This document shows, one piece after another, positions 1 to 30,059 of a stretch of DNA of 64,000 nt (its first letter is position 1; each line of letters opens with the position of its first letter). The stretch lies in the IMG/VR virus record IMGVR_UViG_3300046542_000616. The stretch is one strand, 5' to 3'. The position numbers and the translations under genes are program-made. The notes under the pieces were generated by a model, which had not been told where the DNA came from, searched no databases, and saw only the letters and a list, made by a program, of their open reading frames with translations. This stretch comes from a virus. Lineage: Duplodnaviria > Heunggongvirae > Uroviricota > Caudoviricetes.

Positions 1-369
1 AAAAAGCTGATCAGAGAAGGGGGCTACACCGTAATCCGGCTTGCTCAGGCAGGATTACTCGACGTCATCGGTGAAATGATGGGGGAGGGATACTGGCCAG
101 AGAAGGTTCAAAAACCATCGTCGCTGGAGGATGCGCTGGATGCTCTCCAGGATCGCACATTACTGCCCTTTTATCGGGTCTATTACACAGCCTTTGTTCG
201 GCATCACCCGATTGAGAGCGTGCTGCCGCTGATGAAATCCCCGAAAATGCAGGCCTTGATGCTTGAGGTCTACCGCGACGACGAACTCATTCCTCATCTT
301 CGTACTGGATTGCTCAAAGGCGCGCCCAGGGTCAGGGGAAAATTACTGGAAAATGGATTGGGGCTCTGA
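1..369 (+). CDS. family-A paralog (DUF4116-like repeat protein with conserved ...LE.xLGL C-terminal module), 5'-truncated by window edge
   Basis: Open frame from nt 1; translation KKLIREGGYTVIRLAQAGLLDVIGEMMGEGYWP... matches the C-terminal module of the downstream paralogs; ends KLLENGLGL*. Confidence 0.7.
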   Translation, partial: KKLIREGGYTVIRLAQAGLLDVIGEMMGEGYWPEKVQKPSSLEDALDALQDRTLLPFYRVYYTAFVRHHPIESVLPLMKSPKMQALMLEVYRDDELIPHLRTGLLKGAPRVRGKLLENGLGL

Positions 370-372
370 TCG

Positions 373-1245
373 ATGACGCGCCTTGAATTGATGACCAATA
401 TCCGGAGAGGGCATGAGTACCGCTTCGAAGATCTTCCTGAAGCCTACGTGGATAAGGAGCTGATCAAGGCATGGCTCAGCAGCGCAGCAGGATTATTGGC
501 GAAGATTCCAAAGCACCTGGTAGATGATGACATACGCAGGCATGCGATCACTGCAAAGCATGAGGATCTGGATATTGACGATTCTCCGATCAAGTACATC
601 GCCATGGCGGATACCCAATGCTATGAGGAGTTGGCGCTGTTGGCGCTTGATCAGACCGAATGGAACATGGAATTCGTTGATCATGCGTTGTATAGCGAGG
701 CCTTTTTCTTGAAGGCCCTGGAAATCAATCCACAAGCGATGATGCATTTTTTCTCGGACTGGACAGAGAACAAAATTGAGATCGAGTGGACTGAAGCGAT
801 GATCGATTCTGCCGTCAGCAAGTCACTGGATTACCTTGAGCACTTAGACAAGAATAAGGTCAAGCAAGAATCCCTTGAGTGCCTGATTCGCGAGGGTCAA
901 TACAGGCCAACCTTGATTGCTGGGGCCGGCCTGCTCGACGTCATGAGCGGCATGATGCGGGACGGGTATTGGCCAGCGATGACTGAAAAGCCATCATCAC
1001 TTGAGGACGGGTTGCGCCTTTTGCTGGAATCTCAAGGTTCGGATGACTTGGTGGTCTATTACAAGGCCTTTGTTCGCCACCATTCGATTAAGAACGTGAT
1101 CCCGTTGATGAAATCACCGAAGCTGCAGGGCTTGATGCTTGAGGTCTACAGCGCTGAAGAGTTGATGCCCCACTTGCGCACAGGTTTGCTTAAAGGCCAC
1201 GCTAAAGTCCGGGGAAAATTACTGGAACATGGATTGGGGCTTTGA
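373..1245 (+). CDS. family-A paralog (290 aa), conserved C-terminal tail ...KLLEHGLGL
   Basis: ORF; N-term FEDLPEAYVDKELIKAWL motif; P..L.DDDIRRHAI repeats; C-term module DGYWP...KPSSLED...LEVYSAEEL...LGL; ATGA overlap with next gene. Confidence 0.8.
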   Translation: MTRLELMTNIRRGHEYRFEDLPEAYVDKELIKAWLSSAAGLLAKIPKHLVDDDIRRHAITAKHEDLDIDDSPIKYIAMADTQCYEELALLALDQTEWNMEFVDHALYSEAFFLKALEINPQAMMHFFSDWTENKIEIEWTEAMIDSAVSKSLDYLEHLDKNKVKQESLECLIREGQYRPTLIAGAGLLDVMSGMMRDGYWPAMTEKPSSLEDGLRLLLESQGSDDLVVYYKAFVRHHSIKNVIPLMKSPKLQGLMLEVYSAEELMPHLRTGLLKGHAKVRGKLLEHGLGL

Positions 1246-2114
1246 ACATGACGCGTGAGGAATTAATCAGGGACGTTCGGGGATGGGAGGTAGAATACAG
1301 CTTCAAAAATCTCCCCAAGGAACACTTGGATAGAGATTTGATCAAGGAGTGGCTCAGTGGCCCTTATGGTGAACTAAGCCAAGTACCAAAGCATCTGCTC
1401 GATGATGACATTCGCCGGCACGCGATAACTTTCGCCCACGAGCAGTGTCACGATATCCCCCTGAAGTCGATCTTGGTTTCGGACACCCCAAATTACGAAG
1501 AGCTGGCGCTACTTTCTCTTAGGGAGAGCAGTACGTTTATGGCGTATGTTGATCCTTCCGTCTACAGCGAGGCGTTTTTCTTGAAGGCGCTGCAAGCCAG
1601 TGGTGCATCGATGATGCACTTTGAGCCAGGTAGGGGTAATGCAAAAATCGAGTGGACTCAGGCGATGATCGATGCAGCGATCAGCCAATCATGTAGCTAC
1701 TTGACGTATTTCCACAAAAGTCAGATCAAAAAAGAGAGCTTCAAACGCATGTTAATCGATGGCGTAGCCAGCGCCATTGATATTGCCGACGCCGGCTTTG
1801 CTGATTTTATTGGTGATGCGATGCGTGATGGTTATTGGCCGAAGGACGAAAAAAAGCCATCATCACTGGACGAGGCGCTCTGTTTCCTGCAAGACGCAAA
1901 GAAATCATCGCGCACGCGGGAGATTTACTACACCGCTTTTGTCCGCCACCATCCGATTGAGGATGTGATCCCCCTGATGAAATCTGCGAAGATGCAGTCA
2001 TTGATGCTGGAAATCTACACCTCGGAAGAGTTGATGCCGCATTTGCGTTCAGGCTTGCTCAGGGGCGCAGGGACGGTCAAAGCCAGACTGGTTGAGGATG
2101 GGCTGGGTTTATGA
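1242..2114 (+). CDS. family-A paralog (290 aa)
   Basis: ORF; ~50% identical to 373..1245; same N motif (FKNLPKEHLDRDLIKEWL) and C tail (RLVEDGLGL); ATGA overlaps both sides. Confidence 0.8.
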   Translation: MNMTREELIRDVRGWEVEYSFKNLPKEHLDRDLIKEWLSGPYGELSQVPKHLLDDDIRRHAITFAHEQCHDIPLKSILVSDTPNYEELALLSLRESSTFMAYVDPSVYSEAFFLKALQASGASMMHFEPGRGNAKIEWTQAMIDAAISQSCSYLTYFHKSQIKKESFKRMLIDGVASAIDIADAGFADFIGDAMRDGYWPKDEKKPSSLDEALCFLQDAKKSSRTREIYYTAFVRHHPIEDVIPLMKSAKMQSLMLEIYTSEELMPHLRSGLLRGAGTVKARLVEDGLGL

Positions 2115-2989
2115 CGCGTGAAGAATTGGAGTCTCTGGTTGTCAACCGTGAAGGCCAGATCGAGCTGTTCCAGGAGCTGCCCAAACAGCACCAGGACAAG
2201 GCCATGGCCCATCTGTGGATCAGTCATGGACGCGGCAGTTTGCGTGATATTCCAGAGGCTCTTATTGATGATGATCTGCGCCTGGCCGCGATGGCGCCCT
2301 GGTCTGGAAGCGAATCCACAAATAGACTAAACATCATTGATTCTTTGGGCCTGATCGAGCCTGGACACACTGAGCGCTATGCGGAAATCGCGCTCCGTGG
2401 CGTGATCAATTGCTCACCAGCCATTTGGTCGGTTGACTTCTCGTTTCTGACCAGCGACTTCCTCAAGAAGACCCTTGCGGGGAACCCGTTGGCCTTGGCC
2501 TCCCTGGTCAGAGACGAAGACAGGTTTACAAGGTCAAAAATTGTCATTGACCAGGACGTGATCGATCTTGCGGTATCTAATAGCACGGGGTATTTCGGGT
2601 ATTTCAAAGCGCATCAATACACTGAGGGCGCCATTCGAAATCTTATCAATAAAATTCTCATTAATTACGAAGAGCTCATTACCATCGGGCGGTTCAATGT
2701 ATTGATCGAGATGATCCGTGAAGGGTTTTGGCCGGGTAATTTTCACAAGCTTCCCACCGATCTTGATGATGGCATTGACCTAATGATGGAAGGGTCTTTT
2801 CTGTATCAGGCCTATGTGATGCAGTACCCAACCAAGGAAGTGATCGAAAAAATGACAACGCCGGAGAGAAAGGCGATGCTGCGCAAAATGTACCCTGCCG
2901 AAGAGCTGCTCAAGCATATGCAAGGCACCCATTTGGGCGGGGATCGAGCCTTCAAAGGCAGTTTGCTGGAAAGCGAGCTCGGCTTGTGA
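2111..2989 (+). CDS. family-A paralog (292 aa)
   Basis: ORF; FQELPKQHQDKAMAHLW motif; C tail SLLESELGL; ATGA overlaps. Confidence 0.8.
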   Translation: MTREELESLVVNREGQIELFQELPKQHQDKAMAHLWISHGRGSLRDIPEALIDDDLRLAAMAPWSGSESTNRLNIIDSLGLIEPGHTERYAEIALRGVINCSPAIWSVDFSFLTSDFLKKTLAGNPLALASLVRDEDRFTRSKIVIDQDVIDLAVSNSTGYFGYFKAHQYTEGAIRNLINKILINYEELITIGRFNVLIEMIREGFWPGNFHKLPTDLDDGIDLMMEGSFLYQAYVMQYPTKEVIEKMTTPERKAMLRKMYPAEELLKHMQGTHLGGDRAFKGSLLESELGL

Positions 2990-3858
2990 CCTATCATGAG
3001 GTGGTCTCCGGCCTGATTTCCGGGAAGGTCAAGAAATTCTCGAACATCCCCGAGGAGCACCTGAACGCCTGGGTCGCCAAGACCTGGGTGCAATATGGCC
3101 GTGGCTCCCTGGTGGACATCCCGGCGCACCTTGTTGATGACGAAGTTCGGATGGCGGCCATGACCGTCGATTCCCCCGTGAATCCGAATTATGAGTTTAT
3201 TGTGCCGTCCTTCAAGACGATTGACCCGTCCCAGACGAGCATTTACGAAGAATTGGCGCTTGAGGGAATTCGGCAAGACCGGTGGGTGCTCGCCTGCGTC
3301 AATCCGGCGCTCATAACCAAGGATTTCGTCCTCAAGGCGCTGGATAAGAATGCTGAGGTGCTGGCCCTGTATTCCCTGTGGTCGCTGAAAAGCCATTTCG
3401 GCCATCTCATTTGCCAGGAGATTGTTGACCACGCATTGTCCAAGTCAGCCATTTACCTGGAGAAGTTCGAGCTGCATTGGTTCACCGAAAAAGCGATCAG
3501 TATTTGTATACAAAACAATGATTTCAACTACCAAACGCTGGTGGATTTGGGTCATTACCATGTCCTGGTGGAGATGATTAGGGAGGGGTTTTGGCCTGCA
3601 TACCACAGACCCGCTCCAAAGAGCCCGGAGGATGCAGTGGAGCGTTGGATGCAGGAGCAAGAGTGCCTGCTGAGTCGAGCCGCTGTTCTCAAATATCCCA
3701 TGGAGGAGATCATTGCTCACATGGCAACGCCGGAAAGAAGGCCCGCGCTTTTGTGCCTCTATACGGTGGACGAGCTGATGCCACACCTCAAGACCAAAGT
3801 CCTGGGACAAGACCAGGTTTTTAAAGGCATTTTGATGGAAAGTGAGATGGGCTTATGA
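2986..3858 (+). CDS. family-A paralog (290 aa)
   Basis: ORF; FSNIPEEHLNAWVAKTW; IPAHLVDDEVRMAAM repeat; C tail ILMESEMGL; ATGA overlaps. Confidence 0.8.
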   Translation: MTYHEVVSGLISGKVKKFSNIPEEHLNAWVAKTWVQYGRGSLVDIPAHLVDDEVRMAAMTVDSPVNPNYEFIVPSFKTIDPSQTSIYEELALEGIRQDRWVLACVNPALITKDFVLKALDKNAEVLALYSLWSLKSHFGHLICQEIVDHALSKSAIYLEKFELHWFTEKAISICIQNNDFNYQTLVDLGHYHVLVEMIREGFWPAYHRPAPKSPEDAVERWMQEQECLLSRAAVLKYPMEEIIAHMATPERRPALLCLYTVDELMPHLKTKVLGQDQVFKGILMESEMGL

Positions 3859-4727
3859 GCCTCACCATCAGCCGTGAAGCATTCGTCATCCGCAAGCATT
3901 TCGATGATGTTCCGGCGCAATACCAGACCTATCAGTTGGCAAGGATATACATCGGGACGGGCAAGTGCAGTTTGAAGGGAATCCCAGAGCGATTTATTGA
4001 TGATGACCTACGCCTGCTCGCTGTCGAAATGGCTCAGAGTGCCGCGTATGCCGGCTTGGCGAAGGAGTCGCTCATGGCCATAAAACCTTCAGATACCGAG
4101 CGCTACGAAGAATTGGCATTGGCCAGCATACGATACGACGACTCCAACGTCAGGTACGTCGACAGTACTGTCATGGGCAATGAATTCATGAAGAAAGCGC
4201 TGGCCGTCAACGGCGATGCCCTGCTTGCATTTCTCAGGGATGCCGCGCATATGGGAAGAATTGACCTCACCCAAGAGCTGATCGACCTGGCAATCTCCAA
4301 CAGCGCCACCTATTTTAAGTTCGATGCGTTCCCCCTTGATCAGTACCGGGTTGAGGCCGTGAGCCAGTGCATCAAAAGCCAGAAATTTAACTTGCGAGAT
4401 TTGCTTAAGGTCGGGCATTTCCAGACATTGGTAGAGGTGATCAAGGAAGGCTGCTGGCCGGATCATTTTCCTGAAAAACCTTCGGGCCTCAAATCTGGAA
4501 TCGACACCATGATGCATCAGCCAGAACATAGCATCCTCGTGTACCGTGCCTATGTGATGAGCCATCCGATATCAGAGGTGGTAGCGCATATGACCAATAC
4601 TCAATACAGCGCCGAGCTGCTCAATATGTATTCCAAGGAAGAACTGGCGCCGTTTCTAAAGAATGGCCCGCTTGCCAAAGACCGTGAATTTAAAGGCCGA
4701 TTACTGGAAAATGAGCTGGGCCTCTGA
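3855..4727 (+). CDS. family-A paralog (290 aa)
   Basis: ORF; FDDVPAQYQTYQLARIY; IPERFIDDDLRLLAV; C tail RLLENELGL. Confidence 0.8.
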   Translation: MSLTISREAFVIRKHFDDVPAQYQTYQLARIYIGTGKCSLKGIPERFIDDDLRLLAVEMAQSAAYAGLAKESLMAIKPSDTERYEELALASIRYDDSNVRYVDSTVMGNEFMKKALAVNGDALLAFLRDAAHMGRIDLTQELIDLAISNSATYFKFDAFPLDQYRVEAVSQCIKSQKFNLRDLLKVGHFQTLVEVIKEGCWPDHFPEKPSGLKSGIDTMMHQPEHSILVYRAYVMSHPISEVVAHMTNTQYSAELLNMYSKEELAPFLKNGPLAKDREFKGRLLENELGL

Positions 4728-4764: not shown

Positions 4765-5655
4765 GTGGAAACACCAGGGCTGAAGGAACTGATTCGCGAC
4801 ATTACCAATGGGAAGATCGACGGTTTCTCAGACCTGGCGCCGCACGATCAAACGACAGAAGGCGCACAAGCTTGGTTTGACGTCAAAATGGCTTTTCTCA
4901 ACGACTCAGATCAAGAGACGATTGAGGCCTACTACGACGAGATTCCCCAGGCGTTGCGTTCCCATGCTGTGCATCTGAGGCTGGTGAAGAACAGCCCGCT
5001 GTCCATTGCCCGGATAACCCCAACGACCGAGCTTGAATATTGCGCCCTGATCAGTGCGGCGGTGACGACAGATCCCGCGTCCATCAATCTTGTCGACCCT
5101 GCCTACCAAACCGAACGCACCCTGCAGCTTGTATTGCCGAAATCCTCTTTCACGCTCAATTATGTCTTTCAAAAGTCCGACTGGGTGCGTCGAGAGCTCA
5201 CACCTGCCCTGGTTGACCTCAGCGCCCAAACTGGCGTGAATGTCCTGCTGGCGGTCGATGAAAGCCTGATCAGCAACAACGCGTTGGATTATTTGCTTTC
5301 AAACCACCTGGATAAGCACGCTCAAGTGCGCCGGGCTGGCAAGCTGCACCTGCTGAGCAAGGGTATCGAGCAAGGCTATTGGCCTCGTGGAAGGCTGAAT
5401 GGAAAGGTGAGTAAGCCAACCTGTTTGCCGGCTGCTGTCCGTATGCTGCTCTGTGCGACCTGCGAGGACACGGAAGCGCTTTACCTGGCCTGTGTGAAGA
5501 CTTACCCGGTTGGCAAGGTTGTAAGGCACCTCAAGGGCCCACTGGGGCGTAAGTTCTTGCTGGAGGCGTACACCACGGACGAACTCAGTCCGCACCTTAA
5601 GCAAATGGATAGCAGTCTCAAGGGGGTGTTGCTGGGCAGTGCGTTGGGATTATGA
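4765..5655 (+). CDS. family-A paralog (296 aa, GTG start, divergent member)
   Basis: ORF after 37-bp gap; C tail GVLLGSALGL; weaker N motif; ATGA overlap with next. Confidence 0.7.
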   Translation: METPGLKELIRDITNGKIDGFSDLAPHDQTTEGAQAWFDVKMAFLNDSDQETIEAYYDEIPQALRSHAVHLRLVKNSPLSIARITPTTELEYCALISAAVTTDPASINLVDPAYQTERTLQLVLPKSSFTLNYVFQKSDWVRRELTPALVDLSAQTGVNVLLAVDESLISNNALDYLLSNHLDKHAQVRRAGKLHLLSKGIEQGYWPRGRLNGKVSKPTCLPAAVRMLLCATCEDTEALYLACVKTYPVGKVVRHLKGPLGRKFLLEAYTTDELSPHLKQMDSSLKGVLLGSALGL

Positions 5656-6551
5656 AGATATTGCGGACGGAGGTTGAGGGATGCGCGCCAGCCGAAGTCA
5701 TCACAGCTATTAATTCTGGCTTGATCCGGCATTTTACTGATGTTCCTGTTCCCTGCAGAACGGAAGAGGTTGCGCTTGCCTGGATCAGAAGGATGAATTT
5801 GACTGGGGAATGCATACAGCGCTCTTATGACGCAGTGCCAGTTGAATCCCGAACCAGTGAGTTCATGATGCTTGCTGCACGGCATGGATGTGCCGTACTC
5901 AAGGATGTAACGCCAGGGCAGTTTCCTGAGTACAGGGAGCTTGCCCGCATGGCAGTTTCCTCGAATATTTTCGCGCTGAAGGATGTTGATCCGCGTTTTT
6001 GCGATGAAGCGATGCTGAAATTTACGCAAGGTGTTTTTCCAGAAGACATTCATAAAATCGCGAGGTCATGCGACTGGATATGGGGTGTAATGCCAGATAA
6101 ATTACTGAATAAAATTGCTCTCCATGACTCGCTCTTTGCGTTTGATATACCCCACGACCGAATGAGCAAGCCACTGCATCGCTACATTGACCTTAGTCAT
6201 CTTTCTTGGCGGCCTGGTAAGACGAATATTATTCGAACCATGGGTAGGCTTGATGTACTCGCGGCGCAGGTGCGTGAGGGGGAATGGTTTGAACACAAGC
6301 TGGAAAAGCCTTCCTCCCTTGAGCAGGCGGTTATCGGGCTGGGCAAAGGCCTAAAGGTAGACTCTGATCATGAAGCGAGCCTTTTGGCCTACGTCATGTC
6401 TCATCCAATTGCAGACGTGGTGCCGGCCATGAAGGGAAATCGCATGAAAAAGCTTCTGTTGGAAATGTATCCCGCCGAGGCCTTGGAGCCTTTTCTGAAA
6501 AATGACGTTGGCTTGCGAGGCGCGATGCTGGAAGGGGAGATGGGCCTGTGA
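5652..6551 (+). CDS. family-A paralog (299 aa; subcluster with CDW..FA.D.P motif)
   Basis: ORF; FTDVPVPCRTEEVALAWI; repeats EFMMLAARHGCAVLKDVTP / EYRELARMAVSSNIFALKDVDP; C tail AMLEGEMGL; overlaps. Confidence 0.8.
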   Translation: MKILRTEVEGCAPAEVITAINSGLIRHFTDVPVPCRTEEVALAWIRRMNLTGECIQRSYDAVPVESRTSEFMMLAARHGCAVLKDVTPGQFPEYRELARMAVSSNIFALKDVDPRFCDEAMLKFTQGVFPEDIHKIARSCDWIWGVMPDKLLNKIALHDSLFAFDIPHDRMSKPLHRYIDLSHLSWRPGKTNIIRTMGRLDVLAAQVREGEWFEHKLEKPSSLEQAVIGLGKGLKVDSDHEASLLAYVMSHPIADVVPAMKGNRMKKLLLEMYPAEALEPFLKNDVGLRGAMLEGEMGL

Positions 6552-7447
6552 GCGATCTCCCTGACATCTGCAGCGTGGATGATGTTTTTCACGACCTCCA
6601 ATACTCCATAATCCATACCTTTCTGGAAATACCGGCGCAGTACCAAACTGTCTCAATGGCAGCTTCCTGGATTGAGAAGACTCGGCTGTCTGGAGTGTGG
6701 CTGCATAGCGCCTTTGAGGAAGTCCCCGCCGAGTTCTGGTCAGGGGATTTCATGCTGGTGGCGGCGCAAAAGGGCTGCCCGGTGCTTAAGGTCGCTGCAC
6801 CTGAGCAGTTTCCAAATTACCGGGAAATTGCCATCGCATCACTGACCGTCAATGGTTGTCACCTCGTTGATGTCGACCCACGATTTCGTGATGATCAGAT
6901 GTTTGTGCACGTTCAGCAGACCTGGCCGGAGCACATGTTTGTCATCGCGAGGACGTGCGATTGGCTTATAGGCGCGGTGTCTGATGAGCTTCTTGATCGG
7001 TCAGCGCGCAGCGATCCGCTGTTTGCCCTGATCGCACCTCACGAACGACTTAGCGAGCCCTTACATCGCTACGTGACTCTGAGTGATCTAACCAATAGGA
7101 TGTGGGCATTCCACATCCTTCGCGAAAACGGTCACCTGCCTATGCTGGCAGCCAAGGTGAGCGAGGGGGAGTGGTTCGAGACTAAATTCACTACAATGAA
7201 AAAACCCGATTCCCTTGAGGATGCCGTTGTTGAGCTGGACAGGCTTAAGTCACTCGATGGCGGACTCGAGGTTATTTTCATGGTTTACATCATGACTTAT
7301 CCTATCGACAAAGTGGTTCCGGCCATGAAGGGCATACGCCTGAAAAAGCTTCTGCTTGAGATGTACTCGGCTGAGGCGCTGGCGCCATTCCTCAAAACTG
7401 ATGTGGAACTGAAGGGGGCGATGCTGGAAAGCGCGATAGGTCTATGA
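6548..7447 (+). CDS. family-A paralog (299 aa)
   Basis: ORF (GTG/ATG start in TGA overlap); FLEIPAQYQTVSMAASWI; C tail AMLESAIGL. Confidence 0.8.
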   Translation: MSDLPDICSVDDVFHDLQYSIIHTFLEIPAQYQTVSMAASWIEKTRLSGVWLHSAFEEVPAEFWSGDFMLVAAQKGCPVLKVAAPEQFPNYREIAIASLTVNGCHLVDVDPRFRDDQMFVHVQQTWPEHMFVIARTCDWLIGAVSDELLDRSARSDPLFALIAPHERLSEPLHRYVTLSDLTNRMWAFHILRENGHLPMLAAKVSEGEWFETKFTTMKKPDSLEDAVVELDRLKSLDGGLEVIFMVYIMTYPIDKVVPAMKGIRLKKLLLEMYSAEALAPFLKTDVELKGAMLESAIGL

Positions 7448-9251: not shown

Positions 9252-9253
9252 GC

Positions 9254-21073: not shown

Positions 21074-21075
21074 TC

Positions 21076-21981: not shown

Positions 21982-22859
21982 ACAAAGAAACGCTGCTGAG
22001 ATCCCTCGAATCCAAAGAGAACGTCGCGCTGTTCTCCTCCATCAAGGTCATTCCTGAGAGCCTTCTTGACTCAGAAGTGGCCCTCAAGTGGCTCGAAACG
22101 AGCGTGAGTCTGCGCAGTCAAGGCTCTGATTGGGCCATTCAAGAGATTCCAATGCACTTGGTCAACGACGACATCCGTCGAAGTGCGGTGAAGCTTGGCG
22201 TACGGGCGTTGATGTTCATCAATCCGGACGACACCGACATTTACATGGAGCTGGTGTTGATGGCGACGGCAGCTTCCAATTTTGGCTACATCATGATTGA
22301 TGACCGGCTAAAAACCCGTGAGACCGTCGAAGCCATCATTAATCACGATCCTCAGCACATGTCGCTGGAATGGAATGGGCAGGCGTGGATAAAACCGCTG
22401 CTCACCCAGGCTGACATTGATCGAGTGAGCGCCATCAGCTATCGCTTCATGATGAGTGTGGGCGCCGACAACGTGGCCTGGTCGTCGGTCAAAACGGTGC
22501 TGATCAATAACCCAACCTTCTACCCCGAGCTGGTGAAGAGTGGCGGCGGCGACCTGCTTGTCAGAATGATTCAGGACGGCGGATGGCCGGCCAAGCTTGG
22601 TGGGCAAAATCTTTACAGACCCAAAGGCATTTTTGAGCTGGCCTCACTTATTTCAAAGACCCAAGATCACGAGGTTAAATTTCACCTGTATTGCGCTTGC
22701 CTGAAGACGTTCCCAATCAGCAAGGTGCTCAAGGTGATGTACACAGAGCGGCAGCGAAAAATTCTCTTGAGCCTCTACCCGCAAGACGTCCTGGTCGAGC
22801 ATGCAAAGACCAACCGGCCTCTGCGGGGGCTGCTGCTTGAGGATGCCCTGGGATTATGA
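21978..22859 (+). CDS. family-A paralog (293 aa)
   Basis: ORF; IPESLLDSEVALKWL; IPMHLVNDDIRRSAV repeat; C tail LLLEDALGL. Confidence 0.8.
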   Translation: MNKETLLRSLESKENVALFSSIKVIPESLLDSEVALKWLETSVSLRSQGSDWAIQEIPMHLVNDDIRRSAVKLGVRALMFINPDDTDIYMELVLMATAASNFGYIMIDDRLKTRETVEAIINHDPQHMSLEWNGQAWIKPLLTQADIDRVSAISYRFMMSVGADNVAWSSVKTVLINNPTFYPELVKSGGGDLLVRMIQDGGWPAKLGGQNLYRPKGIFELASLISKTQDHEVKFHLYCACLKTFPISKVLKVMYTERQRKILLSLYPQDVLVEHAKTNRPLRGLLLEDALGL

Positions 22860-23734
22860 GCCTACAAGAACAAGAAGATGCGCTGATTGAAAGCTTCAGC
22901 AATGCGAATAACCCTGATTTTTCGGATATTCCTGAGCACCTGCAGACCGCGAGAGTGGCTGAAGAATGGCTAACCTTCAGGGGTTACCTGGATTTTAAAA
23001 GTGTGCTCCAGTCCTGGGAGCAGATACCGGCACATCTTGTGACGGATGATTTGCGCTTCACTGCTATCGGCATCGATGCTGAAATCATCAAGTGTATTGC
23101 GCCAAGCGACACTGACCGCTACCTGGATCTGTTCATCAAGGCTCATAAGGCCACCGGTAGAACGACCAAATTCTTGCACCCGGACTTCAGAACCACCGAA
23201 ACAGTTCAAGCGATGATGGATTCGCCGGATGAATTCGAGCGAAGCTATCTGATGCACTCATGGATAGCTAAGGTCATGACGGCAGATCAACTGGAATCCG
23301 CCGCCAGGAGTAGTGAAAAAATCATGGTTAAGCTGCCTGTCGAGAAGATCAGCACCGAAGCCATGAGCATTCACTTGGCGGGCAGCTTCTATGGGTTCGG
23401 ATTGTTACGTAAAGAAAGCAAGCTTCGCCTGGCTGCTGATTTTTTGAAAATCTCTGATTGGCCTGAGTCAGCGAATCCCTTTGAGCTGGATAAAAAAGAG
23501 CCAAAGGATGCGCAGGAGGCTTTTGATGTCATCGAGACTGCCCAACCCAACACCCAGGCTATTTACATGGCTTGGCTGATGAATCAACCAATTGAGCAAG
23601 TGATTGCGCTGATGACCACGCGCCCTAAGATGAAGCTGGCCATGGAAATGTATACCGAAGCCGAGCTGAGGCCGCTGATGAAAAACAACAGGCTCTTGAA
23701 GGCCGCGCTGCTTGAGGAGTCCCTCGGCTTATGA
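22856..23734 (+). CDS. family-A paralog (292 aa; subcluster ending ...AALLEESLGL)
   Basis: ORF; FSDIPEHLQTARVAEEWL; IPAHLVTDDLRFTAI; C tail AALLEESLGL. Confidence 0.8.
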   Translation: MSLQEQEDALIESFSNANNPDFSDIPEHLQTARVAEEWLTFRGYLDFKSVLQSWEQIPAHLVTDDLRFTAIGIDAEIIKCIAPSDTDRYLDLFIKAHKATGRTTKFLHPDFRTTETVQAMMDSPDEFERSYLMHSWIAKVMTADQLESAARSSEKIMVKLPVEKISTEAMSIHLAGSFYGFGLLRKESKLRLAADFLKISDWPESANPFELDKKEPKDAQEAFDVIETAQPNTQAIYMAWLMNQPIEQVIALMTTRPKMKLAMEMYTEAELRPLMKNNRLLKAALLEESLGL

Positions 23735-24609
23735 CTTTGCAGGAAGAGGAAGATGCACTGATTTCTCGTTTCAGCAACCTGTACACGCCGGCCTTTGCGG
23801 AGATACCCAGGCACCTGCAGACTGAGCGGCTAGCGAAAGAATGGCTCACCATCCTGTCGAACCTCAATTTTGATGCCGTCATCAGTTATTGGGAGCAGAT
23901 TCCCGCCGAGCTGATTACCGATGAGTTGCGCGAGAAGGCAATCGGCCTGGATGTCCGGATTATCCAGCACATTGACCCAAGCGACACAGAGAGCTACCTG
24001 GATTTGTTCATCAGGGCTTTCAAGACCTCCTGGGTCGTCCTGCCACTGCTGCACCCTGATTTTAAAACATCCAGCACGATAGACTTGATGCTCTCTTCTG
24101 CGCGTCAGTTCGAATACGGTTATCAGAAAAATAGCTGGATCGCCGATGTCATGACCCCTGACCAATGGGAAGCTGCATCCAGAATCAGCGCAAAGATCAT
24201 GGCAGACTTGCCTGTTGAAAAGATCAGCCCCGAGGCCCTGCATACCCACCTGAGTATTGGCTATTCCGGGTACGGTATGTTGCACAAGAAGGGAAAGCTC
24301 AAGCTGGCCGCTGACTATCTGAAACAGGGCCATTGGCCTGTGGTCAGTGAGGCGTTGCGCCGGGACATTGAGAGGCCAGGGGATATTGCTCAGGGGTTGT
24401 CGCTGGCGCTTGAGTATGATTCTGGAGGGGAGGCGTTGTACTTGGCCTATCTGATGACTCATCCTGTTGAGGAGGTGCTGTCGGTGATGAGCACGCGAGA
24501 GCACATCAGCTACCTGCTGGAAATGTACACGCCAGAAGAGCTTCGCCCCTTTATTAGAACTCACCGGCACCTGAAGGCTGCCTTATTAGAGGAGTCGTTA
24601 GGATTATGA
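23731..24609 (+). CDS. family-A paralog (292 aa)
   Basis: ORF; ~50% identical to 22856..23734; C tail AALLEESLGL. Confidence 0.8.
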   Translation: MTLQEEEDALISRFSNLYTPAFAEIPRHLQTERLAKEWLTILSNLNFDAVISYWEQIPAELITDELREKAIGLDVRIIQHIDPSDTESYLDLFIRAFKTSWVVLPLLHPDFKTSSTIDLMLSSARQFEYGYQKNSWIADVMTPDQWEAASRISAKIMADLPVEKISPEALHTHLSIGYSGYGMLHKKGKLKLAADYLKQGHWPVVSEALRRDIERPGDIAQGLSLALEYDSGGEALYLAYLMTHPVEEVLSVMSTREHISYLLEMYTPEELRPFIRTHRHLKAALLEESLGL

Positions 24610-25502
24610 GAGCTAATGAGAATTTAGACCGCTTCAGGGGCTTGGCGAGTCTTCTGTCTGATTATTCTACTTTCGCTATGGTTCCTGATGAATTCAAGAC
24701 GCCAGAAGGCGCTTGCGGTTGGATGCTGGGTCAAATCTACAATGATAATCCACCCCTTCTGGAGTTTTTTTCGCAAATTCCACCCGCCTTGGTGAGCGAT
24801 GATTTGCGAATAATTGCACTGGACAAGAACTCAGGTTTTATCGATCACATTGATCCAAAGGATACTGATCAATACCTTGCTCTATTCCTCTTGGCTTACA
24901 AGCTTTGCTGGAAACGGGGACAAACACTCCAGCCTCACCCGGATTATCAAACGGTTTCAACCGTTGAAGGAATGATCGCCCTGGCCAACATCCCGGCGTT
25001 TGAGCGATGCATTTACCATCAGCCCTGGATCGCCCAGGTGATGACGCCTGCACAGATTGCGACTGTGTCAGAGGCAAGCTTCGAGCTGATGCTCAGATTT
25101 CCAAATGTTATGCCAGGTGATAGGGCGCTTGATAAGCATCTTAAGCACACCAATAATGGCTACATTGCGTTACGAAAGGCGAAGCGGCTTGAGTGGGCAG
25201 CATGTTATGTGAAATCCGGTGGCTGGCCAACCCCAGATGCATTGTTTGAGTCTGAACAACCTCGACCAAAAGACATTCATGAGGCGCTGAAGTTTATAGT
25301 CAGCGATAGCAAGAAGGTTTGCCAGGCTCTGTACATGGCATGGCTAATGACACAACCCATAGAGCACGTCATTCCTCAGATGGACAGCCGTAAACTCATC
25401 AACCTGGCGATGGAGATGTACTCGCCCGAAGCGCTTCGTCCATACTTGAAAGTGAACCGGCACCTGAAGGCTGCCTTGTTAGAGGAGTCCTTAGGATTAT
25501 GA
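24606..25502 (+). CDS. family-A paralog (298 aa)
   Basis: ORF; FAMVPDEFKTPEGACGWM; IPPALVSDDLRIIAL; C tail AALLEESLGL. Confidence 0.8.
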   Translation: MRANENLDRFRGLASLLSDYSTFAMVPDEFKTPEGACGWMLGQIYNDNPPLLEFFSQIPPALVSDDLRIIALDKNSGFIDHIDPKDTDQYLALFLLAYKLCWKRGQTLQPHPDYQTVSTVEGMIALANIPAFERCIYHQPWIAQVMTPAQIATVSEASFELMLRFPNVMPGDRALDKHLKHTNNGYIALRKAKRLEWAACYVKSGGWPTPDALFESEQPRPKDIHEALKFIVSDSKKVCQALYMAWLMTQPIEHVIPQMDSRKLINLAMEMYSPEALRPYLKVNRHLKAALLEESLGL

Positions 25503-26383
25503 TCATTGCAGACGACTTTAAGAGTTTTGAGGAAACTCTCCTGCGTCTATCGAAATACAAATCATTTGCCGAAATTCCCGAGAGGATGAAAACTAAGGAA
25601 GTGGCGGCGGATTGGCTGAAGGTGATGAAAACCGCTGGGACGGCTCGATTTGTCGATTACTTTGGGCAAATCCCCAAGGCGTTTGTTTCACAAGATCTTC
25701 TGAAGTATGTTGTTGATTCGGATGTGCGTCTTTTGGCCAATATTAATCCAGAAGACAGCAGTAATTATGCCGAGCTGTGCGCTGTCGGTTTCCAGAGAAG
25801 TTACCTGGCGGCCAACTATTTTCACGAAAGTTTTCGAACTACACAAACGGTCGCATCATTGGTGGCTTTCACCTTTGAGTTTAACAAGGTTTTTGCCGAG
25901 ATTCCGTGGGTCATGAACGTCATTACGCCGGATCAGATCGAAACGGTTTCGCTAGCCAATATTTCCTGCATGGTGAGCCTGCCGGACGAGAAAATCAGTG
26001 ATGTCGCTTTAAGCAAGCACCTCTCAAGGGGCGAAAACTTCCTGTTTTTGAGAGCAAAAGGAAAATTGCACTTAGGTGCCAAACACTTGAAAACGGGCGC
26101 CTGGCCCGAGCCTCAGCATCAAGACGCAGTTCGGCCCTCGAAGCCAAGAACTCTGAGCAGCGCCTTCAAATATGCGGTGTCCGGTAGCTATCCCAAAGAC
26201 CTCAAGGCGCTGTATATGGCCAACCTCATGACCTACCCCATCGAGGACGTCATGCCCTTGATGCAGACGCGCCAGCATGTCTCTTTGGCCATGGAGATGT
26301 ATTCAGCCAAAGAGCTGAAGCCTTTCATAAAAACCAACCGGCATCTGAAGGTTGCCCTTCTTGAGGACTCGTTAGGTTTATGA
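25499..26383 (+). CDS. family-A paralog (294 aa)
   Basis: ORF; FAEIPERMKTKEVAADWL; C tail VALLEDSLGL. Confidence 0.8.
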   Translation: MIIADDFKSFEETLLRLSKYKSFAEIPERMKTKEVAADWLKVMKTAGTARFVDYFGQIPKAFVSQDLLKYVVDSDVRLLANINPEDSSNYAELCAVGFQRSYLAANYFHESFRTTQTVASLVAFTFEFNKVFAEIPWVMNVITPDQIETVSLANISCMVSLPDEKISDVALSKHLSRGENFLFLRAKGKLHLGAKHLKTGAWPEPQHQDAVRPSKPRTLSSAFKYAVSGSYPKDLKALYMANLMTYPIEDVMPLMQTRQHVSLAMEMYSAKELKPFIKTNRHLKVALLEDSLGL

Positions 26384-27249
26384 TCATGATGAATGGTGAC
26401 AATTTCTATCAGGCGTATGACCGTTTCGAGGCGCTTCCAGAGCATGTCAAAAATGCATTTGGAGCCTCCAAGTGGTATCAGGCATGGGCGACCGAGGGCG
26501 TCGACCCAGCGTTCGCGTGCGATTGTTTTAAGCAAATACCACCGAACCTTGTGAACGACGATCTGCGCAAGTACGCGGTTTTTTATCACGTGCAGGTGAT
26601 CGACTTGATTGATCCCAGTGATACGCCCGCCTACAAGTCGATTTGCCTGAATGCCTACCGCTCCAGCTACAAGGCTGCGCAGTTTTTCAAGGCCGAGGTG
26701 CATACGGCTGAGATGGTCGAGCTGATGATCAGGGATTACACCGGGTCGTTCCTCGACGCTTATCGGTCATGCCCATGGATCGCTGAGTTGATGACGCCCG
26801 CCCTGATCGAAAAGGCGTGTCTTACCAGTGATGTATTCATGCTGTCGCTGCCGGATGCTCTGATGAGTAGAGCTGCGCTGGATAAGCACCTTGGGGAAGG
26901 CACTTCAACGTATTCCTTATTGAAAAAAGTGGGAAGACTGCACATTGGCGTTGATTATTTGAAAGGCGGTAGATGGCCTGAATCCAATGGCCCATTCGAT
27001 GACGATGTACAAAAACCTGAAAGCCTGCTGGAGGCATTCTCCTTGCTTCTCGGTAATGCCGATATTCCTCGTGCTTTGTACATGGCGTATGTCATGACGC
27101 ATGACATAAAAGATGTCCTGGCCCTGGTGGTTACCCCATCGTGCGCAAAACTCGCGGTCGAGATGTACGACGAAAAAGAGCTGCGGCCTCACATCAAAAC
27201 CAACCGGCATTTAAGGGCTGCGATGCTTGAGGAGTCGCTGGGCTTATGA
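26380..27249 (+). CDS. family-A paralog (289 aa)
   Basis: ORF; FEALPEHVKNAFGASKWY; IPPNLVNDDLRKYAV; C tail AAMLEESLGL. Confidence 0.8.
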   Translation: MIMMNGDNFYQAYDRFEALPEHVKNAFGASKWYQAWATEGVDPAFACDCFKQIPPNLVNDDLRKYAVFYHVQVIDLIDPSDTPAYKSICLNAYRSSYKAAQFFKAEVHTAEMVELMIRDYTGSFLDAYRSCPWIAELMTPALIEKACLTSDVFMLSLPDALMSRAALDKHLGEGTSTYSLLKKVGRLHIGVDYLKGGRWPESNGPFDDDVQKPESLLEAFSLLLGNADIPRALYMAYVMTHDIKDVLALVVTPSCAKLAVEMYDEKELRPHIKTNRHLRAAMLEESLGL

Positions 27250-28112
27250 GACCTGACCAGATTGCCGACTACGAGTTCTACAAGGTCTTTCAGCGCTTTG
27301 AGGCGCTTCCCGAGCACGCCATGAACAGCTACGGGGCGTTGAAATGGCTGTCCGCCATGGTAGTGCTGTTTGACATGAAAGCGGCTGACGCGCTTGAACA
27401 GATCCCGCGCTCATTGGTGACTGACGAGATCCGTGAATATGCGTTCAAGAAGGACGTGAGGTCGCTGGCACTGGTTCATCCTGAGGACACCTCTGACTAC
27501 ACCAAGTTTTGCGTGAGTTGCTACCTGGGCGATTACCGGGCGGCGGAGTTTTTTCATGAAAGCATTCGGACATCAAGAACTGTCGGCGAAATGATCTACA
27601 CCCCCGGTGTTTTTGTCGAATCTTACAAGGCTTTTCCCTGGATAGCGGATGTCATAACGCCCGCTCAGATTGAGGAAGCCTCCATTTTAAACATGCGGTT
27701 CATGTTGCTCTTCCCCGATGAAGAGATCAGTGAGCAGGCATTGAAGTCGCACCTAGAAAGGCAATCTGGATACTACAACCTGAAAAAGGCGGGTCGTTTG
27801 CACTTGGCGGCCAGTTACCTCAAGAGCGGTGGATGGCCGGAGACCTACGGCCCCTTTCAAGCCGATCAAGAAAAACCAGGTAGTATTGAGCACGCCTTCG
27901 CGATCATGCTCGACGACAAAGGCGCCGGCTGCCCGCCGTTGTACATGGCCTACGTCATGGGCCATCCCATCGAGGAGGTCATCATGCAGGTCAAGAGCAC
28001 GGCAATCGCCAAAGCTGTCTTGGAAATGTATGGTGAGCGCGAACTTCAACCTTTCATGAAAAGCAATCGTCACCTGAAGGCGAGTCTGCTCGAGGAGTCC
28101 CTGGGATTATGA
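27246..28112 (+). CDS. family-A paralog (288 aa)
   Basis: ORF; FEALPEHAMNSYGALKWL; IPRSLVTDEIREYAF; C tail ASLLEESLGL. Confidence 0.8.
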   Translation: MRPDQIADYEFYKVFQRFEALPEHAMNSYGALKWLSAMVVLFDMKAADALEQIPRSLVTDEIREYAFKKDVRSLALVHPEDTSDYTKFCVSCYLGDYRAAEFFHESIRTSRTVGEMIYTPGVFVESYKAFPWIADVITPAQIEEASILNMRFMLLFPDEEISEQALKSHLERQSGYYNLKKAGRLHLAASYLKSGGWPETYGPFQADQEKPGSIEHAFAIMLDDKGAGCPPLYMAYVMGHPIEEVIMQVKSTAIAKAVLEMYGERELQPFMKSNRHLKASLLEESLGL

Positions 28113-29092
28113 TCAATCTTGAAAAGCTGCCCAGCATGACTTTCGACGAGGCGGTGAAGTCCTGGGTTGAGGAAGATCTCGAGCGTGCTCGAAAGGATCA
28201 GCATATGAACGAAACTCTAGACAAAATTTTTTCCTTCAAGAATTACCATGACTTTTCTGAAGTTCCCGAGGCAAAGAGAAATCAGGACGGTGCTTACAAC
28301 TGGTTGTTCATGAAGGAAACCACTCCTGGTTCTGGCAGGAAGACGATTCGCGAGTGGTTTCGGCAGATTCCCGTAGATCTGTGGCAGAACAAGACGCTGG
28401 AGATCGCGTTCTCGAAAGACATTCAGACTCTCGCCGACATTCAGCCAGGCACCGTGCCCGATTACCTGAAGATCTGCATGACCGCGTACAAGACCAATTC
28501 TTCGGCGGCTTTGTATTTCCATGAGAGTTTCCACACGGCAGACACCGTTGAGGCGATGATTGAGGCGAGCCCAGGCTTCTTCAAAAGCGCCTATGGCGCC
28601 AATCCCTGGATGGCTAGGGTCATCACACCAACGCTGCTTGAGAAGGCGGCGATTGAAAGCCTGATTTTCATGGTCAGCCTGCCCGAGGAGCAGATCACAG
28701 ATGCCGCGTTAGGCGCGCATTTGGAGAGGGGCTACATGGGATATGCCATGCTTAGAGATTCCGGAAAGCTTAAATTGGCAGCGAACTTCCTTAAAACAGT
28801 GCCTTGGCCGGAGGGCAGGAAGGACACAGGTGAGAACTACCTGATTCCTCCCCGTGACATTCGTGATGCACTGGAGCGAGCAGCCGTGTTGTATCGGACA
28901 GAGCCTATATACCAGTCCGTGTACATGGCCTATGTTATAAATCAGCCCATTGAAGATGTCATCGCACAGGTGAATAACAAGGCGTTTACGACGCTGGTGC
29001 TGGAAATGTACAGTGAAAAAGAGCTTCTCCCCCACATCAAGAACAATCGCCGCCTGAAAGCGGGGTTGCTTGAAAATTCGCTGGGCCTCTGA
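28109..29092 (+). CDS. family-A paralog (327 aa, N-terminal extension)
   Basis: ORF; FSEVPEAKRNQDGAYNWL; C tail AGLLENSLGL. Confidence 0.8.
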   Translation: MINLEKLPSMTFDEAVKSWVEEDLERARKDQHMNETLDKIFSFKNYHDFSEVPEAKRNQDGAYNWLFMKETTPGSGRKTIREWFRQIPVDLWQNKTLEIAFSKDIQTLADIQPGTVPDYLKICMTAYKTNSSAALYFHESFHTADTVEAMIEASPGFFKSAYGANPWMARVITPTLLEKAAIESLIFMVSLPEEQITDAALGAHLERGYMGYAMLRDSGKLKLAANFLKTVPWPEGRKDTGENYLIPPRDIRDALERAAVLYRTEPIYQSVYMAYVINQPIEDVIAQVNNKAFTTLVLEMYSEKELLPHIKNNRRLKAGLLENSLGL

Positions 29093-29144
29093 AGCTTCCG
29101 CGACCAAAGAATAGGCTTGGGCGCCAGCACTGGAAAGTTGAAAA

Positions 29145-30059
29145 ATGGCTATCTATATCTACCAATTGCTGAATGGTTACAAGGAAAATGCGGAGCCATT
29201 CTCACGCTATTCCGCGTTTTCGGACGTCCCGGCGCCCACGCCAGAAGATGCCCGTAATTGGCTTATGGCAGTGCATGCCAAACGAGAACATCAGCTCCCG
29301 CAATACCTATCGCAAATACCACGGGCGTTGTGGAGCGATGGGTTACTCGAATTCGCGGTGAAATACGATCCAAAGGCGCTAAACTTGATCAGTCCGGCTG
29401 ATACCGGCATTTATCAGTCGCTGTGCGTCCAGGCTTATGCGGAGGACTTTGAGGCCGCAGGCCAGTTCCATGAGACATTCCGCACTTCAGAAACCGTGTT
29501 GCTCATGCTGGAAGCGAAAGGCGACTTCTATGAGAGCTACAAGCGCTTTCCGTGGATTGAAAGCGTGATGACGCCATCTGTTTTCAAGAAGGCGACCAGG
29601 AATTCCTTTGAGTTTTTACTCTCACGCCCGGTGTCTGAAATATCAGTGCCCACGCTAAACATCTGGTTCGGCGTTGGGACTGGGCATTATCAGCGTGCTC
29701 GAAAGGATGGGCGCCTCGACTTGCCCGCCACACTGCTCAAGTTGGGCTTTTGGCCACGCATTTTTAAGGTACTCGAGACGGACGTGCACGGAGACTTGGT
29801 CAATATTGAGGCCGAGGAAAGGCCTGACACACTCAAGCGTGGACTTGAGCTGGTAGTGGAAACGTCTGATTATTCTTTATGTGGCGTGTACATAGCCTAC
29901 GTCAAAACATTCCCCATTGCCGAGGTCATCCAGCAAGTCGATAACCGCAAGTACGTCCCGTTCATCATCGAGATGTACAAGGATGAGGAGCTTCGTCCCT
30001 ACATCAATACCAACCGGCATTTGAAGGCCGGGTTACTGGAAAGCGCGCTGGGTCTTTGA
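29145..30059 (+). CDS. family-A paralog (304 aa), last gene of the plus array
   Basis: ORF; FSDVPAPTPEDARNWL; C tail AGLLESALGL* without a downstream overlapping start; followed by terminator hairpin. Confidence 0.8.
   Translation: MAIYIYQLLNGYKENAEPFSRYSAFSDVPAPTPEDARNWLMAVHAKREHQLPQYLSQIPRALWSDGLLEFAVKYDPKALNLISPADTGIYQSLCVQAYAEDFEAAGQFHETFRTSETVLLMLEAKGDFYESYKRFPWIESVMTPSVFKKATRNSFEFLLSRPVSEISVPTLNIWFGVGTGHYQRARKDGRLDLPATLLKLGFWPRIFKVLETDVHGDLVNIEAEERPDTLKRGLELVVETSDYSLCGVYIAYVKTFPIAEVIQQVDNRKYVPFIIEMYKDEELRPYINTNRHLKAGLLESALGL

Follow-up and report, generated by a model that had tools for sequence, protein, structure and literature searches.

Tandem gene arrays encoding alpha-helical proteins with a shared C-terminal motif on an uncultured megaplasmid-like replicon

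Introduction

In ankyrin-repeat proteins of poxviruses and giant viruses, a C-terminal F-box-like (PRANC) domain docks on the SCF ubiquitin ligase of the host. In bacteria, homogeneous polyimmunity loci have been defined as at least four tandem, co-oriented, closely spaced and distantly related paralogs of one superfamily that are not interrupted by toxin genes (PMC3482391). Substrates of type IV secretion systems (T4SSs) carry C-terminal signals, and the XVIPCD is a conserved C-terminal domain common to many effectors (PMC8740702). In the Dot/Icm system, effectors are recruited by DotM via the C-terminal tail, and co-evolution of DotM with other kinds of tails may have taken place in other species (PMC5802825). 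Here, we report the analysis of a stretch of 64,000 nucleotides filed as a virus of the Caudoviricetes (IMG/VR record IMGVR_UViG_3300046542_000616; the whole stretch is hereafter called the window), which carries two large arrays of tandem genes whose proteins end with the same short motif.

Relatives of several genes in the window are found on very large Pseudomonas plasmids. The founding megaplasmid of this kind, pMPPla107 (~1 Mb), encodes a complete Dot/Icm-like T4SS for which effector secretion is unknown, and 776 of its 1080 genes (about 70%) are hypothetical (PMC3136466). pBASL58 belongs to the pMPPla107 family, whose members share gene order at 38-49% identity (PMC6482414). Arrays such as those described below are not mentioned in the publication on the pMPPla107 family.

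Results and discussion

Two gene arrays and a C-terminal motif common to otherwise unrelated proteins

The most telling feature of the locus is a strictly C-terminal motif that occurs across otherwise unrelated protein families, rather than the gene array itself. This tail has the consensus [KR]G-x-h-LE-x-x-[LM]G[LM]-COOH. It was identified in 46 of the 404 stop-to-stop open reading frames (ORFs) of at least 60 amino acids (aa) in the window, and all 46 were located within the two arrays (coordinates are shown in Table 1).

Array 1 occupies the plus strand of positions 1-30059. ORF listing and translation identified 33 paralogs there, 32 complete and one cut by the edge of the window, in agreement with an initial annotation that had been made from the sequence. 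Among the complete members, 31 have 288-327 aa and one is a minimal form of 162 aa (11052-11540), which has the N-terminal motif and the C-terminal module but not the middle part. The previously listed motifs could all be found in the alignment, including the N-terminal F..IP...A..W motif, the G.WP motif and a C-terminal module of ~100 aa, and every member terminates with ...LE..LGL directly before the stop codon. A contig from another assembly (L012), which is identical to the window at all 11,245 overlapping bases, reaches further upstream and contains four more complete members as well as two head genes, H1 and H2 (527 and 540 aa). Thus, array 1 consists of 2 + 37 genes (39) over ~36 kb and starts 7.3 kb upstream of the window, and the unit is larger than the interval 1-30059 to which it had first been assigned. 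A second array of the same system (array 2, at 46.9-56.1 kb) comprises 15 minus-strand genes between 46899 and 56130, which encode proteins of 125-215 aa with mutual identities of 23-49%. Profile-profile comparison identified this family as a homolog of the last ~115 residues of array 1 proteins (hhalign probability 93.7%, E=1.9e-7). Three architectures are therefore encoded side by side: 37 solenoids of ~295 aa, two head proteins of ~530 aa and 15 proteins of ~190 aa equivalent to just the C-terminal module. In total, at least 54 tagged neighboring genes were counted in 66 kb.

H1 and H2 are paralogous (41% identical) and their bodies are unrelated to the solenoids, yet they end with ...RGQMLENSMGL and ...RGELLENAMGL, respectively. 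For these two proteins and three further families of ~281, ~225 and 366 aa, profile alignments spanned the last 12-22 residues alone. Hence, at least four further families, which otherwise show no detectable relation to arrays 1 and 2, have the tail in common with them as a short linear motif at the C-terminus. Distant homologs of 280-325 aa (22-30% identical) have retained F..IP, G.WP and a strictly terminal LE..LG[LM]. The tail was also retained in solitary genes, in genes on the opposite strand and in distant genes present in one or two copies.

Additional arrays, together with several different protein bodies that bear the tail, were identified at loci with such distant members. Two of these loci (L021-L023 and L024-L026) are from the same samples as the window, and one protein was also found on a contig of more than 1 Mb. 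Among the ORFs of at least 100 aa, 14 of 28 in L021 and 9 of 34 in L020 bear the tail. Three loci from the same or similar samples (L021, a Logan SRR26076635 contig of 61.8 kb, L020 and L024) have a run of at least nine ~300-aa solenoid members, a separate run of at least five ~281-aa proteins that share the tail but have another body, and ~225-aa tail-bearing genes on the opposite strand. The neighbors of these loci encode GmrSD_N, HD_4, pentapeptide-repeat and RNA polymerase alpha-CTD-like proteins.

Gene junctions and the level at which the tail is constrained

The genes of array 1 are packed very closely. A 4-bp NTGA overlap was observed at 22 of the 32 junctions (the initial annotation had noted the prevalence of such overlaps and counted 21 of 31) and a 1-bp overlap at one; the remaining junctions have gaps of 2, 3, 15, 35, 37, 52, 66, 92 and 1355 nucleotides (nt). 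One ORF that had been called from a TTG at 9089 most likely starts at the GTG at 9248, which overlaps the preceding stop. Such spacing would be compatible with the two giant transcripts suggested at first; scans for promoter and terminator consensus sequences were uninformative.

Within the last eight codons of array 1 members, the conserved LE[DE] codons provide the overlapping next gene with a Shine-Dalgarno-like sequence, and pairing of the tail codons with the anti-Shine-Dalgarno sequence has a mean of -6.2 kcal/mol, as compared with -2.6 kcal/mol for the background. This value and the frequency of NTGA overlaps could suggest that the tail is without function at the protein level and was carried along, because the duplication unit includes the stop/start junction and because the tail codons provide the next gene with its Shine-Dalgarno sequence and overlapping start; the arrays would then be neutral or selfish expansions. 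However, synonymous codons vary freely at every position of the tail, which largely refutes this explanation and leads us to reject the tail as a purely nucleotide-level coupling element. Moreover, terminal, solitary and opposite-strand genes retain the tail, as do the distant homologs with one or two copies, and in m20 (members of array 1 are numbered as in Table 1) it is retained although no gene overlaps the stop codon. Because synonymous codons vary and the tail persists without an overlapping downstream gene, the constraint acts on the protein. Ratios of nonsynonymous to synonymous substitution rates (dN/dS) of 0.13-0.32 also indicate selection on the proteins, and a functionless tail is extremely improbable.

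Protein properties and remote homologs

The family proteins are soluble and mildly acidic, with a median isoelectric point of 5.4 and a net charge of -9. Neither signal peptides nor transmembrane segments were found in them, and therefore any export would bypass the Sec pathway. The AlphaFold2 (AF2) model of the array 1 member at 5652-6551 is an all-alpha solenoid (predicted local distance difference test score, pLDDT, 93.3), and that of the array 2 protein at 47352-47927 is also all-alpha (pLDDT 87.3). Conservation is highest at the C-terminus, with column entropies of 1.6-2.0 bits in the final 60 residues and of 2.5-3.1 bits in the body. These results show a lineage-specific expansion at this locus: its genes encode soluble, acidic, alpha-helical proteins in which a fast-diversifying body is joined to a conserved, strictly C-terminal ending.

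Scans of the members against Pfam, NCBIfam, PHROGs and PADLOC matched no characterized family. In sequence-profile searches of the PDB with the two family alignments, one (A1) gave nothing at E up to 1 and the other (A4) gave only weak matches to unrelated proteins (best E=0.005). Metagenome proteins were the only matches in the protein database search. Comparison of structures with viral proteins by Foldseek gave no match at E <=0.001; the list of weaker matches (E >=0.019) was topped by DUF4116 proteins of giant viruses and also included F-box and ankyrin paralog families.

Similarity of the N-terminal part to DUF4116 (PF13475) had been expected. At the level of Pfam membership this was not borne out, since only 3 of 32 members matched, all below the gathering threshold of 24.9 bits (best E=0.019; the member at 5652-6551 scored 12 bits). 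On the other hand, a profile built from the 32 members matched several long multi-repeat proteins (P0076, P0109, P0120, P0133 and P0140) with E=1e-23 to 1e-37. These proteins were matched many times at profile positions ~20-140 and are themselves recognized by Pfam DUF4116 with E=1e-38 to 1e-97. The profile thus recognizes genuine DUF4116 proteins, which indicates that the N-terminal half of the solenoids is a remote relative of the DUF4116 repeat. An exhaustive profile search yielded 1,964 cluster representatives at E <=1e-3, 90 of them at E <=1e-30. In this way, a large family without characterization (~2,000 cluster representatives) is linked to the DUF4116 repeats that have expanded in giant viruses.

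Evolution of the arrays

Pairwise identity within array 1 ranges from 18 to 64%. As noted at first, nearest neighbors are the most alike: the mean identity is 39% for adjacent and 25% for non-adjacent members, the best match lies within two positions for 30 of 32 members, and the pair starting at 16632 and 17501 is 61% identical overall. Subfamilies of consecutive genes, such as m06 and m07 or m08-m10, could also be distinguished.

Arrays in contigs from other samples (L005-L008, L010 and L016-L019) are colinear with array 1. Orthologs across these related arrays are 38-87% identical and are usually closer to each other than to any paralog within the same array; for example, L019 has an m26 ortholog with 87% identity and a dN/dS of 0.13, and the orthologs of m27-m37 in L016 are 38-65% identical. 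Lineage-specific changes were also observed, including the doubling of m21 (L005 and L010), the tripling of m29 (L019), extra m19-like copies, losses and insertions of insertion sequences, and gene number differs among L005, L006 and L007. In the same comparison, flanking orthologs were mostly 66-78% identical as against 38-65% for array orthologs, which indicates that the array evolves faster than its neighbors.

All reading frames are intact, as initially stated, and every pair tested was under purifying selection: the Nei-Gojobori dN/dS was 0.13-0.32 for orthologous and paralogous pairs, and 0.13-0.24 for flanking genes. Judging from these ratios, the array genes are functional and individually kept. 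Pseudogene decay could be ruled out on the basis of the intact frames and dN/dS, and recent duplication on the basis of saturated synonymous sites and orthologous colinearity. The earlier view of repeated local tandem duplication therefore holds in that a single family has been duplicated locally; the duplications are, however, ancient and gene order is conserved across related elements. On the basis of these comparisons, most paralogs are older than the split of the related elements, and the arrays have followed a birth-and-death evolution of functional genes. With at least 54 copies in 66 kb that are ancient yet individually conserved, this is an extreme case of such evolution for a bacterial gene family.

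The organization and the variation of the arrays bring to mind a homogeneous polyimmunity locus, in which each paralog would neutralize a different polymorphic toxin of competitors and the whole would be a pre-emptive collection. The initial annotation knew of no characterized counterpart of the arrays, although this type of locus has been published (PMC3482391). The 37 paralogs of array 1 conform to the published organization, being tandem, on the same strand, distantly related (18-64% identity) and separated by very small spacing; the only interruption is an opposite-strand ERCC4 nuclease gene. Furthermore, copy number varies between the related elements that were compared, transposases or recombinases are encoded nearby, the family has relatives in giant viruses, and all-alpha repeat proteins (HEAT and ankyrin) are listed among immunity families (PMC3482391). 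Nevertheless, the defining association with toxins was not found: no toxin or toxin-cassette domain was recorded beside any member in ~10 contexts, a limited sample that comprised L005-L010, L016-L026 and loci of FeN3W, pPL1 and P. serbica, and no immunity family was matched in PADLOC or Pfam. The members also exceed the typical size of immunity proteins, and whereas an organism usually has a single locus (PMC3482391), at least two arrays were found here and others elsewhere. In addition, polyimmunity leaves unexplained why a short C-terminal motif occurs on unrelated bodies and why the C-terminus is the most constrained part. Hence, we consider a polyimmunity function quite unlikely.

Insertion sequences are concentrated at the arrays. 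Array 2 is adjoined by an IS200/IS605 pair (TnpB at 56676-57980 on the minus strand and a Y1 transposase at 58011-58436), and a gene with a weak OrfB_IS605 match splits an m22 ortholog in L019 (908-2422). The related array of L005 contains a MerR/Resolvase-domain gene next to a 549-aa gene without annotation (177-2444). The 549-aa gene, which heads the L005 array, was considered as a functional head gene and was dropped, as it adjoins the MerR/Resolvase-domain gene, lacks the LGL end and looks like an insertion sequence.

Replicon and megaplasmid context

One contig that carries a window protein is 1,282,131 bp long. The replicon, which is uncultured and resembles the ~1 Mb Pseudomonas megaplasmids, thus has a size of at least 1.28 Mb. 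Named relatives of window genes reside only on Pseudomonas plasmids of 0.9-1.2 Mb (Leaf58 pBASL58, P. silesiensis pPL1, P. serbica IT-P366 and FeN3W); five window genes have their best, or their sole, named matches there, at 24-57% identity. No close relatives were found in a scan of 185,579 species-representative genomes, and the final scan gave one P. serbica megaplasmid locus. An assignment to a jumbo phage was dropped in view of the size of the contig, the lack of matches to phage records and the lack of PHROG structural matches. Neither tRNAs nor Rfam families were detected in the 64 kb, and most neighboring ORFs matched no family.

Plasmid pPL1 contains four tandem full-length homologs of H1/H2, which end with ...FSKDLGL or ...FGQDLGL. 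The order of H-type genes, a DUF808 gene (57% identical) and a DotM_C-like gene (33%) is the same on pPL1 as in the window, indicating that the 37-gene array has expanded within a conserved slot of the backbone.

Possible roles of the tagged proteins

Probably, the arrays encode a library of diversified binding proteins, in which variable solenoid surfaces bind many targets and the invariant tail serves as a common handle for one shared partner. Different partners could be considered. First, the solenoids might be intracellular adaptors or substrate receptors that bind proteins of the host, of phages or of rival elements, with the tail docking on one cytoplasmic machine such as an AAA+ unfoldase or protease, or acting as a degron that sets turnover; the ankyrin-PRANC proteins would be an analogy. 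A variable body joined to a conserved C-terminal handle, the same tail on unrelated bodies and the cytoplasmic character of the proteins are in line with such a role, as are the conserved megaplasmid AAA+ gene with a Lon-like module at 60274-62241 and the DUF4116, F-box and ankyrin paralog families of giant viruses in the weak Foldseek list. However, the AAA+ gene is situated 4 kb past array 2 and has no Pfam protease domain. To our knowledge, no bacterial degron or docking motif has this tail sequence, which also counts against adaptors or degrons, and such a role seems unlikely.

Second, the tail might be a tag for cargo loading or assembly, by which many proteins would be directed to a single protein-built compartment or polymeric structure made by the element. 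A hydrophobic-Gly-hydrophobic motif that is short, confined to the C-terminus and present on unrelated proteins would suit this purpose, and overlapping genes imply co-expression at equal stoichiometry; the cargo peptides of encapsulins are likewise short C-terminal motifs with a G-S-L core. Yet genes for a shell, a capsid-like protein or a microcompartment were not found in the window, a cargo of dozens of types would have no precedent, and the tail lies within a predicted helix rather than in a flexible extension. A cargo tag thus appears very improbable.

Third, and this is the specific mechanism that we favor, though tentatively, the tail of the proposed binding proteins may be a translocation signal that is read by the coupling complex of the Dot/Icm-like type IVB secretion/conjugation system (T4BSS) reported for this megaplasmid group. 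This proposal is based on the C-terminal signals of T4SS substrates, the precedent of the XVIPCD, the recruitment of effectors by DotM via C-terminal tails, the lack of Sec signals and the conservation of DotM-like neighbors. Two soluble proteins encoded downstream of array 1 resemble the cytoplasmic domain of DotM: one matches Pfam DotM_C at 30.3 bits (E=5.9e-7), above the cut-off of 27, and the other at 22.6 bits (E=1.3e-4), which falls short of it. The pair is 71-75% identical in L016, where it also lies beside the array, and 33% in pPL1. When it was used as a profile against the PDB, the six best matches were all Legionella DotM (E ~0.007). The pair may be functionally linked to the arrays, and the two proteins might take part in recognition of the tail. 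The tagged proteins would then be delivered into recipient or target cells, where they could, for example, neutralize varied host factors or defenses upon entry of the element. By means of the 4-bp overlaps, and with the tail codons acting as the next ribosome-binding site, the whole library could be co-expressed from a few long transcripts.

It should be noted that several observations weigh against a Dot/Icm-like translocation signal. No T4BSS structural genes were found in the 64-kb window. The similarity to DotM_C is weak (30 bits; E ~0.007 for the PDB profile), and the Arg pair that apparently matches R314/R315, which bind Glu-rich peptides, is not conserved in the DotM_C-like proteins. 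In pPL1, the solenoid members are ~460 kb away from the DotM_C-like block, and therefore the adjacency of DotM_C-like genes and arrays may reflect conserved backbone synteny instead of function. Whereas the signals known for Dot/Icm substrates are mostly disordered and show no sequence conservation, the tail ends a confidently predicted helix. Nor does it resemble an E-block, with only one or two acidic residues (Glu/Asp) in the fixed motif and a median net charge of -1 over the last 30 residues. The module also departs from the alpha-alpha-beta-beta-beta XVIPCD in being all-alpha and in having no Gln-rich tail.

In a wider sense, [KR]G..LE..LG[LM]-COOH could define a previously unrecognized targeting system of giant Pseudomonas-type megaplasmids, with one tag on dozens to perhaps more than 100 fast-diversifying and otherwise unrelated proteins per replicon and a single dedicated machine; we regard this as possible but rather doubtful. 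If it is true and the machine is Dot/Icm-like, the tagged proteins would be the long-sought effectors of this megaplasmid group and the first large effector repertoire of conjugative plasmids with a conserved, readable signal. If the machine is something else, they would represent a new kind of cargo system. Whether such plasmids secrete anything beyond DNA has been an open question since 2011 (PMC3136466), and the invariant C-terminal motif provides a testable candidate for the substrate signal, or for that of another targeting system. It also allows the whole repertoire to be listed from sequence alone. Experiments should be feasible, since P. silesiensis G3, P. serbica IT-P366 and Pseudomonas sp. 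FeN3W have been cultured and their plasmids carry one to four tail-bearing genes at the loci examined.

Features of the window and neighboring genes

The positions of array members and of conserved neighbors are shown in Table 1.

Table 1 Coordinates of array members and other features of the window
Feature	Coordinates	Strand	Remarks
Array 1, m05 (C-terminal part only)	1-369	+	Ends with ...LLENGLGL before the stop; full 291-aa gene is L012:9122-9997
Array 1, m06-m10 (290-292 aa, 4-bp overlaps)	373-1245, 1242-2114, 2111-2989, 2986-3858, 3855-4727	+	Tail LE..LGL
Array 1, m11-m18	4765-5655, 5652-6551, 6548-7447, 7444-8346, 8343-9251, 9248-10144, 10141-11055, 11052-11540	+	m18 is the 162-aa minimal form
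Array 1, m19 and m20	11607-12479, 12495-13403	+	ORF listing, alignment
ERCC4 + helix-hairpin-helix nuclease (interrupts array 1, non-member)	13465-14118	-	Pfam ERCC4 E=6e-28, HHH_5 E=1.1e-8
Array 1, m21-m26	14759-15631, 15724-16632, 16632-17504, 17501-18379, 18376-19260, 19257-20141	+	ORF listing, junctions
Array 1, m27-m32	20177-21073, 21076-21981, 21978-22859, 22856-23734, 23731-24609, 24606-25502	+	ORF listing, junctions
Array 1, m33-m37	25499-26383, 26380-27249, 27246-28112, 28109-29092, 29145-30059	+	ORF listing, junctions
Possible terminator hairpin, AAGCCTCC-AAA-GGAGGCTT	30073-30091	+	Candidate from consensus scan alone; after the last member, between convergent genes
DUF808 gene (conserved downstream neighbor)	33062-33985	+	Pfam E=6.5e-107; 76% in L016, 57% in pPL1
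DotM_C-like soluble protein 1	34997-35479	+	Conserved neighbor
DotM_C-like soluble protein 2	35507-36133	+	Conserved neighbor
Array 2 block 1, genes 1-5	46899-47294, 47352-47930, 47927-48496, 48493-49071, 49068-49649	-	Tail ...KG..LE[DE].LGL before the stop
Array 2 block 1, genes 6-9	49646-50245, 50315-50719, 50716-51231, 51146-51727	-	Tail ...KG..LE[DE].LGL before the stop
Array 2 block 2, six genes	52875-53516, 53516-53917, 53914-54489, 54489-55082, 55099-55704, 55759-56130	-	Same tail

Both arrays are interrupted once. At the position of the nuclease gene, L005 and L010 have only ~290 nt between the same members, and thus this gene is a lineage-specific insertion. Two plus-strand ORFs located between 13.4 and 14.8 kb (13447-13950 and 14145-14741) do not belong to the family, and the ~640 bp between the nuclease and the next member (14119-14758) are apparently non-coding and may contain divergent promoters. 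The 1.1-kb interruption of array 2 (51728-52874) has only short plus-strand ORFs (51699-52169 and 52126-52437). No remnants of the family were detected in the gaps of either array, including 13380-14780.

Downstream of array 1, a minus-strand gene (30112-31482) encodes a 456-aa protein with four internal repeats of ~80 aa (YF..GD.T.YYDA.EAA.AF ... G.G.EVAG.N..G.AFLNKLDFQ...MT..F) and a Pro/Ala-rich linker, for which no significant family match was obtained. This gene and two SPFH-like genes (31674-32979) are missing at the syntenic position of L016, where the DUF808 gene directly follows the last array member. Further downstream, three genes (36562-37833, 40898-42142 and 42274-43116) form a small paralog family of 280-423 aa proteins (25-44% identical), which has no Pfam match and is kept in L016; for its 423-aa member, a weak match was obtained on pPL1 of P. 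silesiensis. A 404-aa protein encoded at 39668-40882 on the plus strand matches R2K-clade ATP-grasp domains in its C-terminal part (Pfam R2K_2/R2K_3, E ~1e-10). As its ortholog in L016 (78% identical) has only 202 aa, the window protein carries an extra N-terminal half. Beyond array 2, the plus-strand AAA+ gene mentioned above encodes a 655-aa protein with a Lon-like ATPase module, in which Pfam detected no protease domain. The best named matches of this protein are AAA ATPases of the Leaf58 (pBASL58) and P. silesiensis megaplasmids (33-36%), and it is probably part of the backbone of this plasmid group.

Comparison with known systems

Several described systems resemble the arrays in part. Like them, ankyrin-PRANC proteins are tandemly expanded paralogs that combine a variable helical-repeat binder with a small conserved C-terminal helical module for one machine; they belong to eukaryotic viruses, however, show no sequence or specific fold similarity to the window proteins, and no ubiquitin system is implied here. 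The DUF4116 proteins of giant viruses and protists likewise consist of alpha-solenoid repeats and form large paralog families. In contrast to the window proteins, they are long multi-repeat proteins without the C-terminal module of array 1 or the tail, and DUF4116 has no known function.

Polyimmunity loci share with the arrays a minimal spacing that suggests one polycistronic message, variation between strains, nearby mobile-element genes and families that also occur in giant viruses (PMC3482391). The scale here is larger, with 37 + 15 + 2 genes in addition to the arrays elsewhere, no link to toxins was found in the contexts sampled, and the members are ~300-aa solenoids whose conserved C-terminal tag is also present on unrelated proteins.

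The XVIPCD effectors of the antibacterial T4SS of Xanthomonadales are comparable in that many proteins per genome share a C-terminal region of ~100-120 residues, whose extreme C-terminus is essential and is read by the coupling protein (PMC8740702). They differ in having an alpha-alpha-beta-beta-beta fold and a Gln-rich tail, and the domain is carried by enzymatic toxins that are paired with immunity genes. The proteins of the window are non-enzymatic solenoids with an all-alpha module and an LE..LGL end, without interleaved immunity genes and without sequence similarity to XVIPCD proteins; their AF2 models are entirely helical and no enrichment in Gln was observed. Large repertoires are also typical of Dot/Icm E-block effectors, whose C-terminal signal has acidic residues followed by a hydrophobic extreme C-terminus (PMC5802825). 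The likeness extends to the DotM-like domain proteins encoded beside the arrays and to the Dot/Icm-like system of the related pMPPla107 (PMC3136466). E-blocks, however, are strongly acidic, non-conserved and disordered (PMC5802825), whereas a fixed motif with one or two Glu ends a helix here and no strongly acidic, Glu-rich stretch is present in the last ~30 residues. Furthermore, the two proteins with a DotM-like domain are soluble, of small size and apparently devoid of the binding Arg pair of DotM.

None of the database families, solved structures or publications that we found describes the arrays or the tail. Although they depart from each testable kind of system in its defining feature, the arrays resemble polyimmunity loci, effector repertoires with C-terminal signals and the repeat-protein expansions of viruses.

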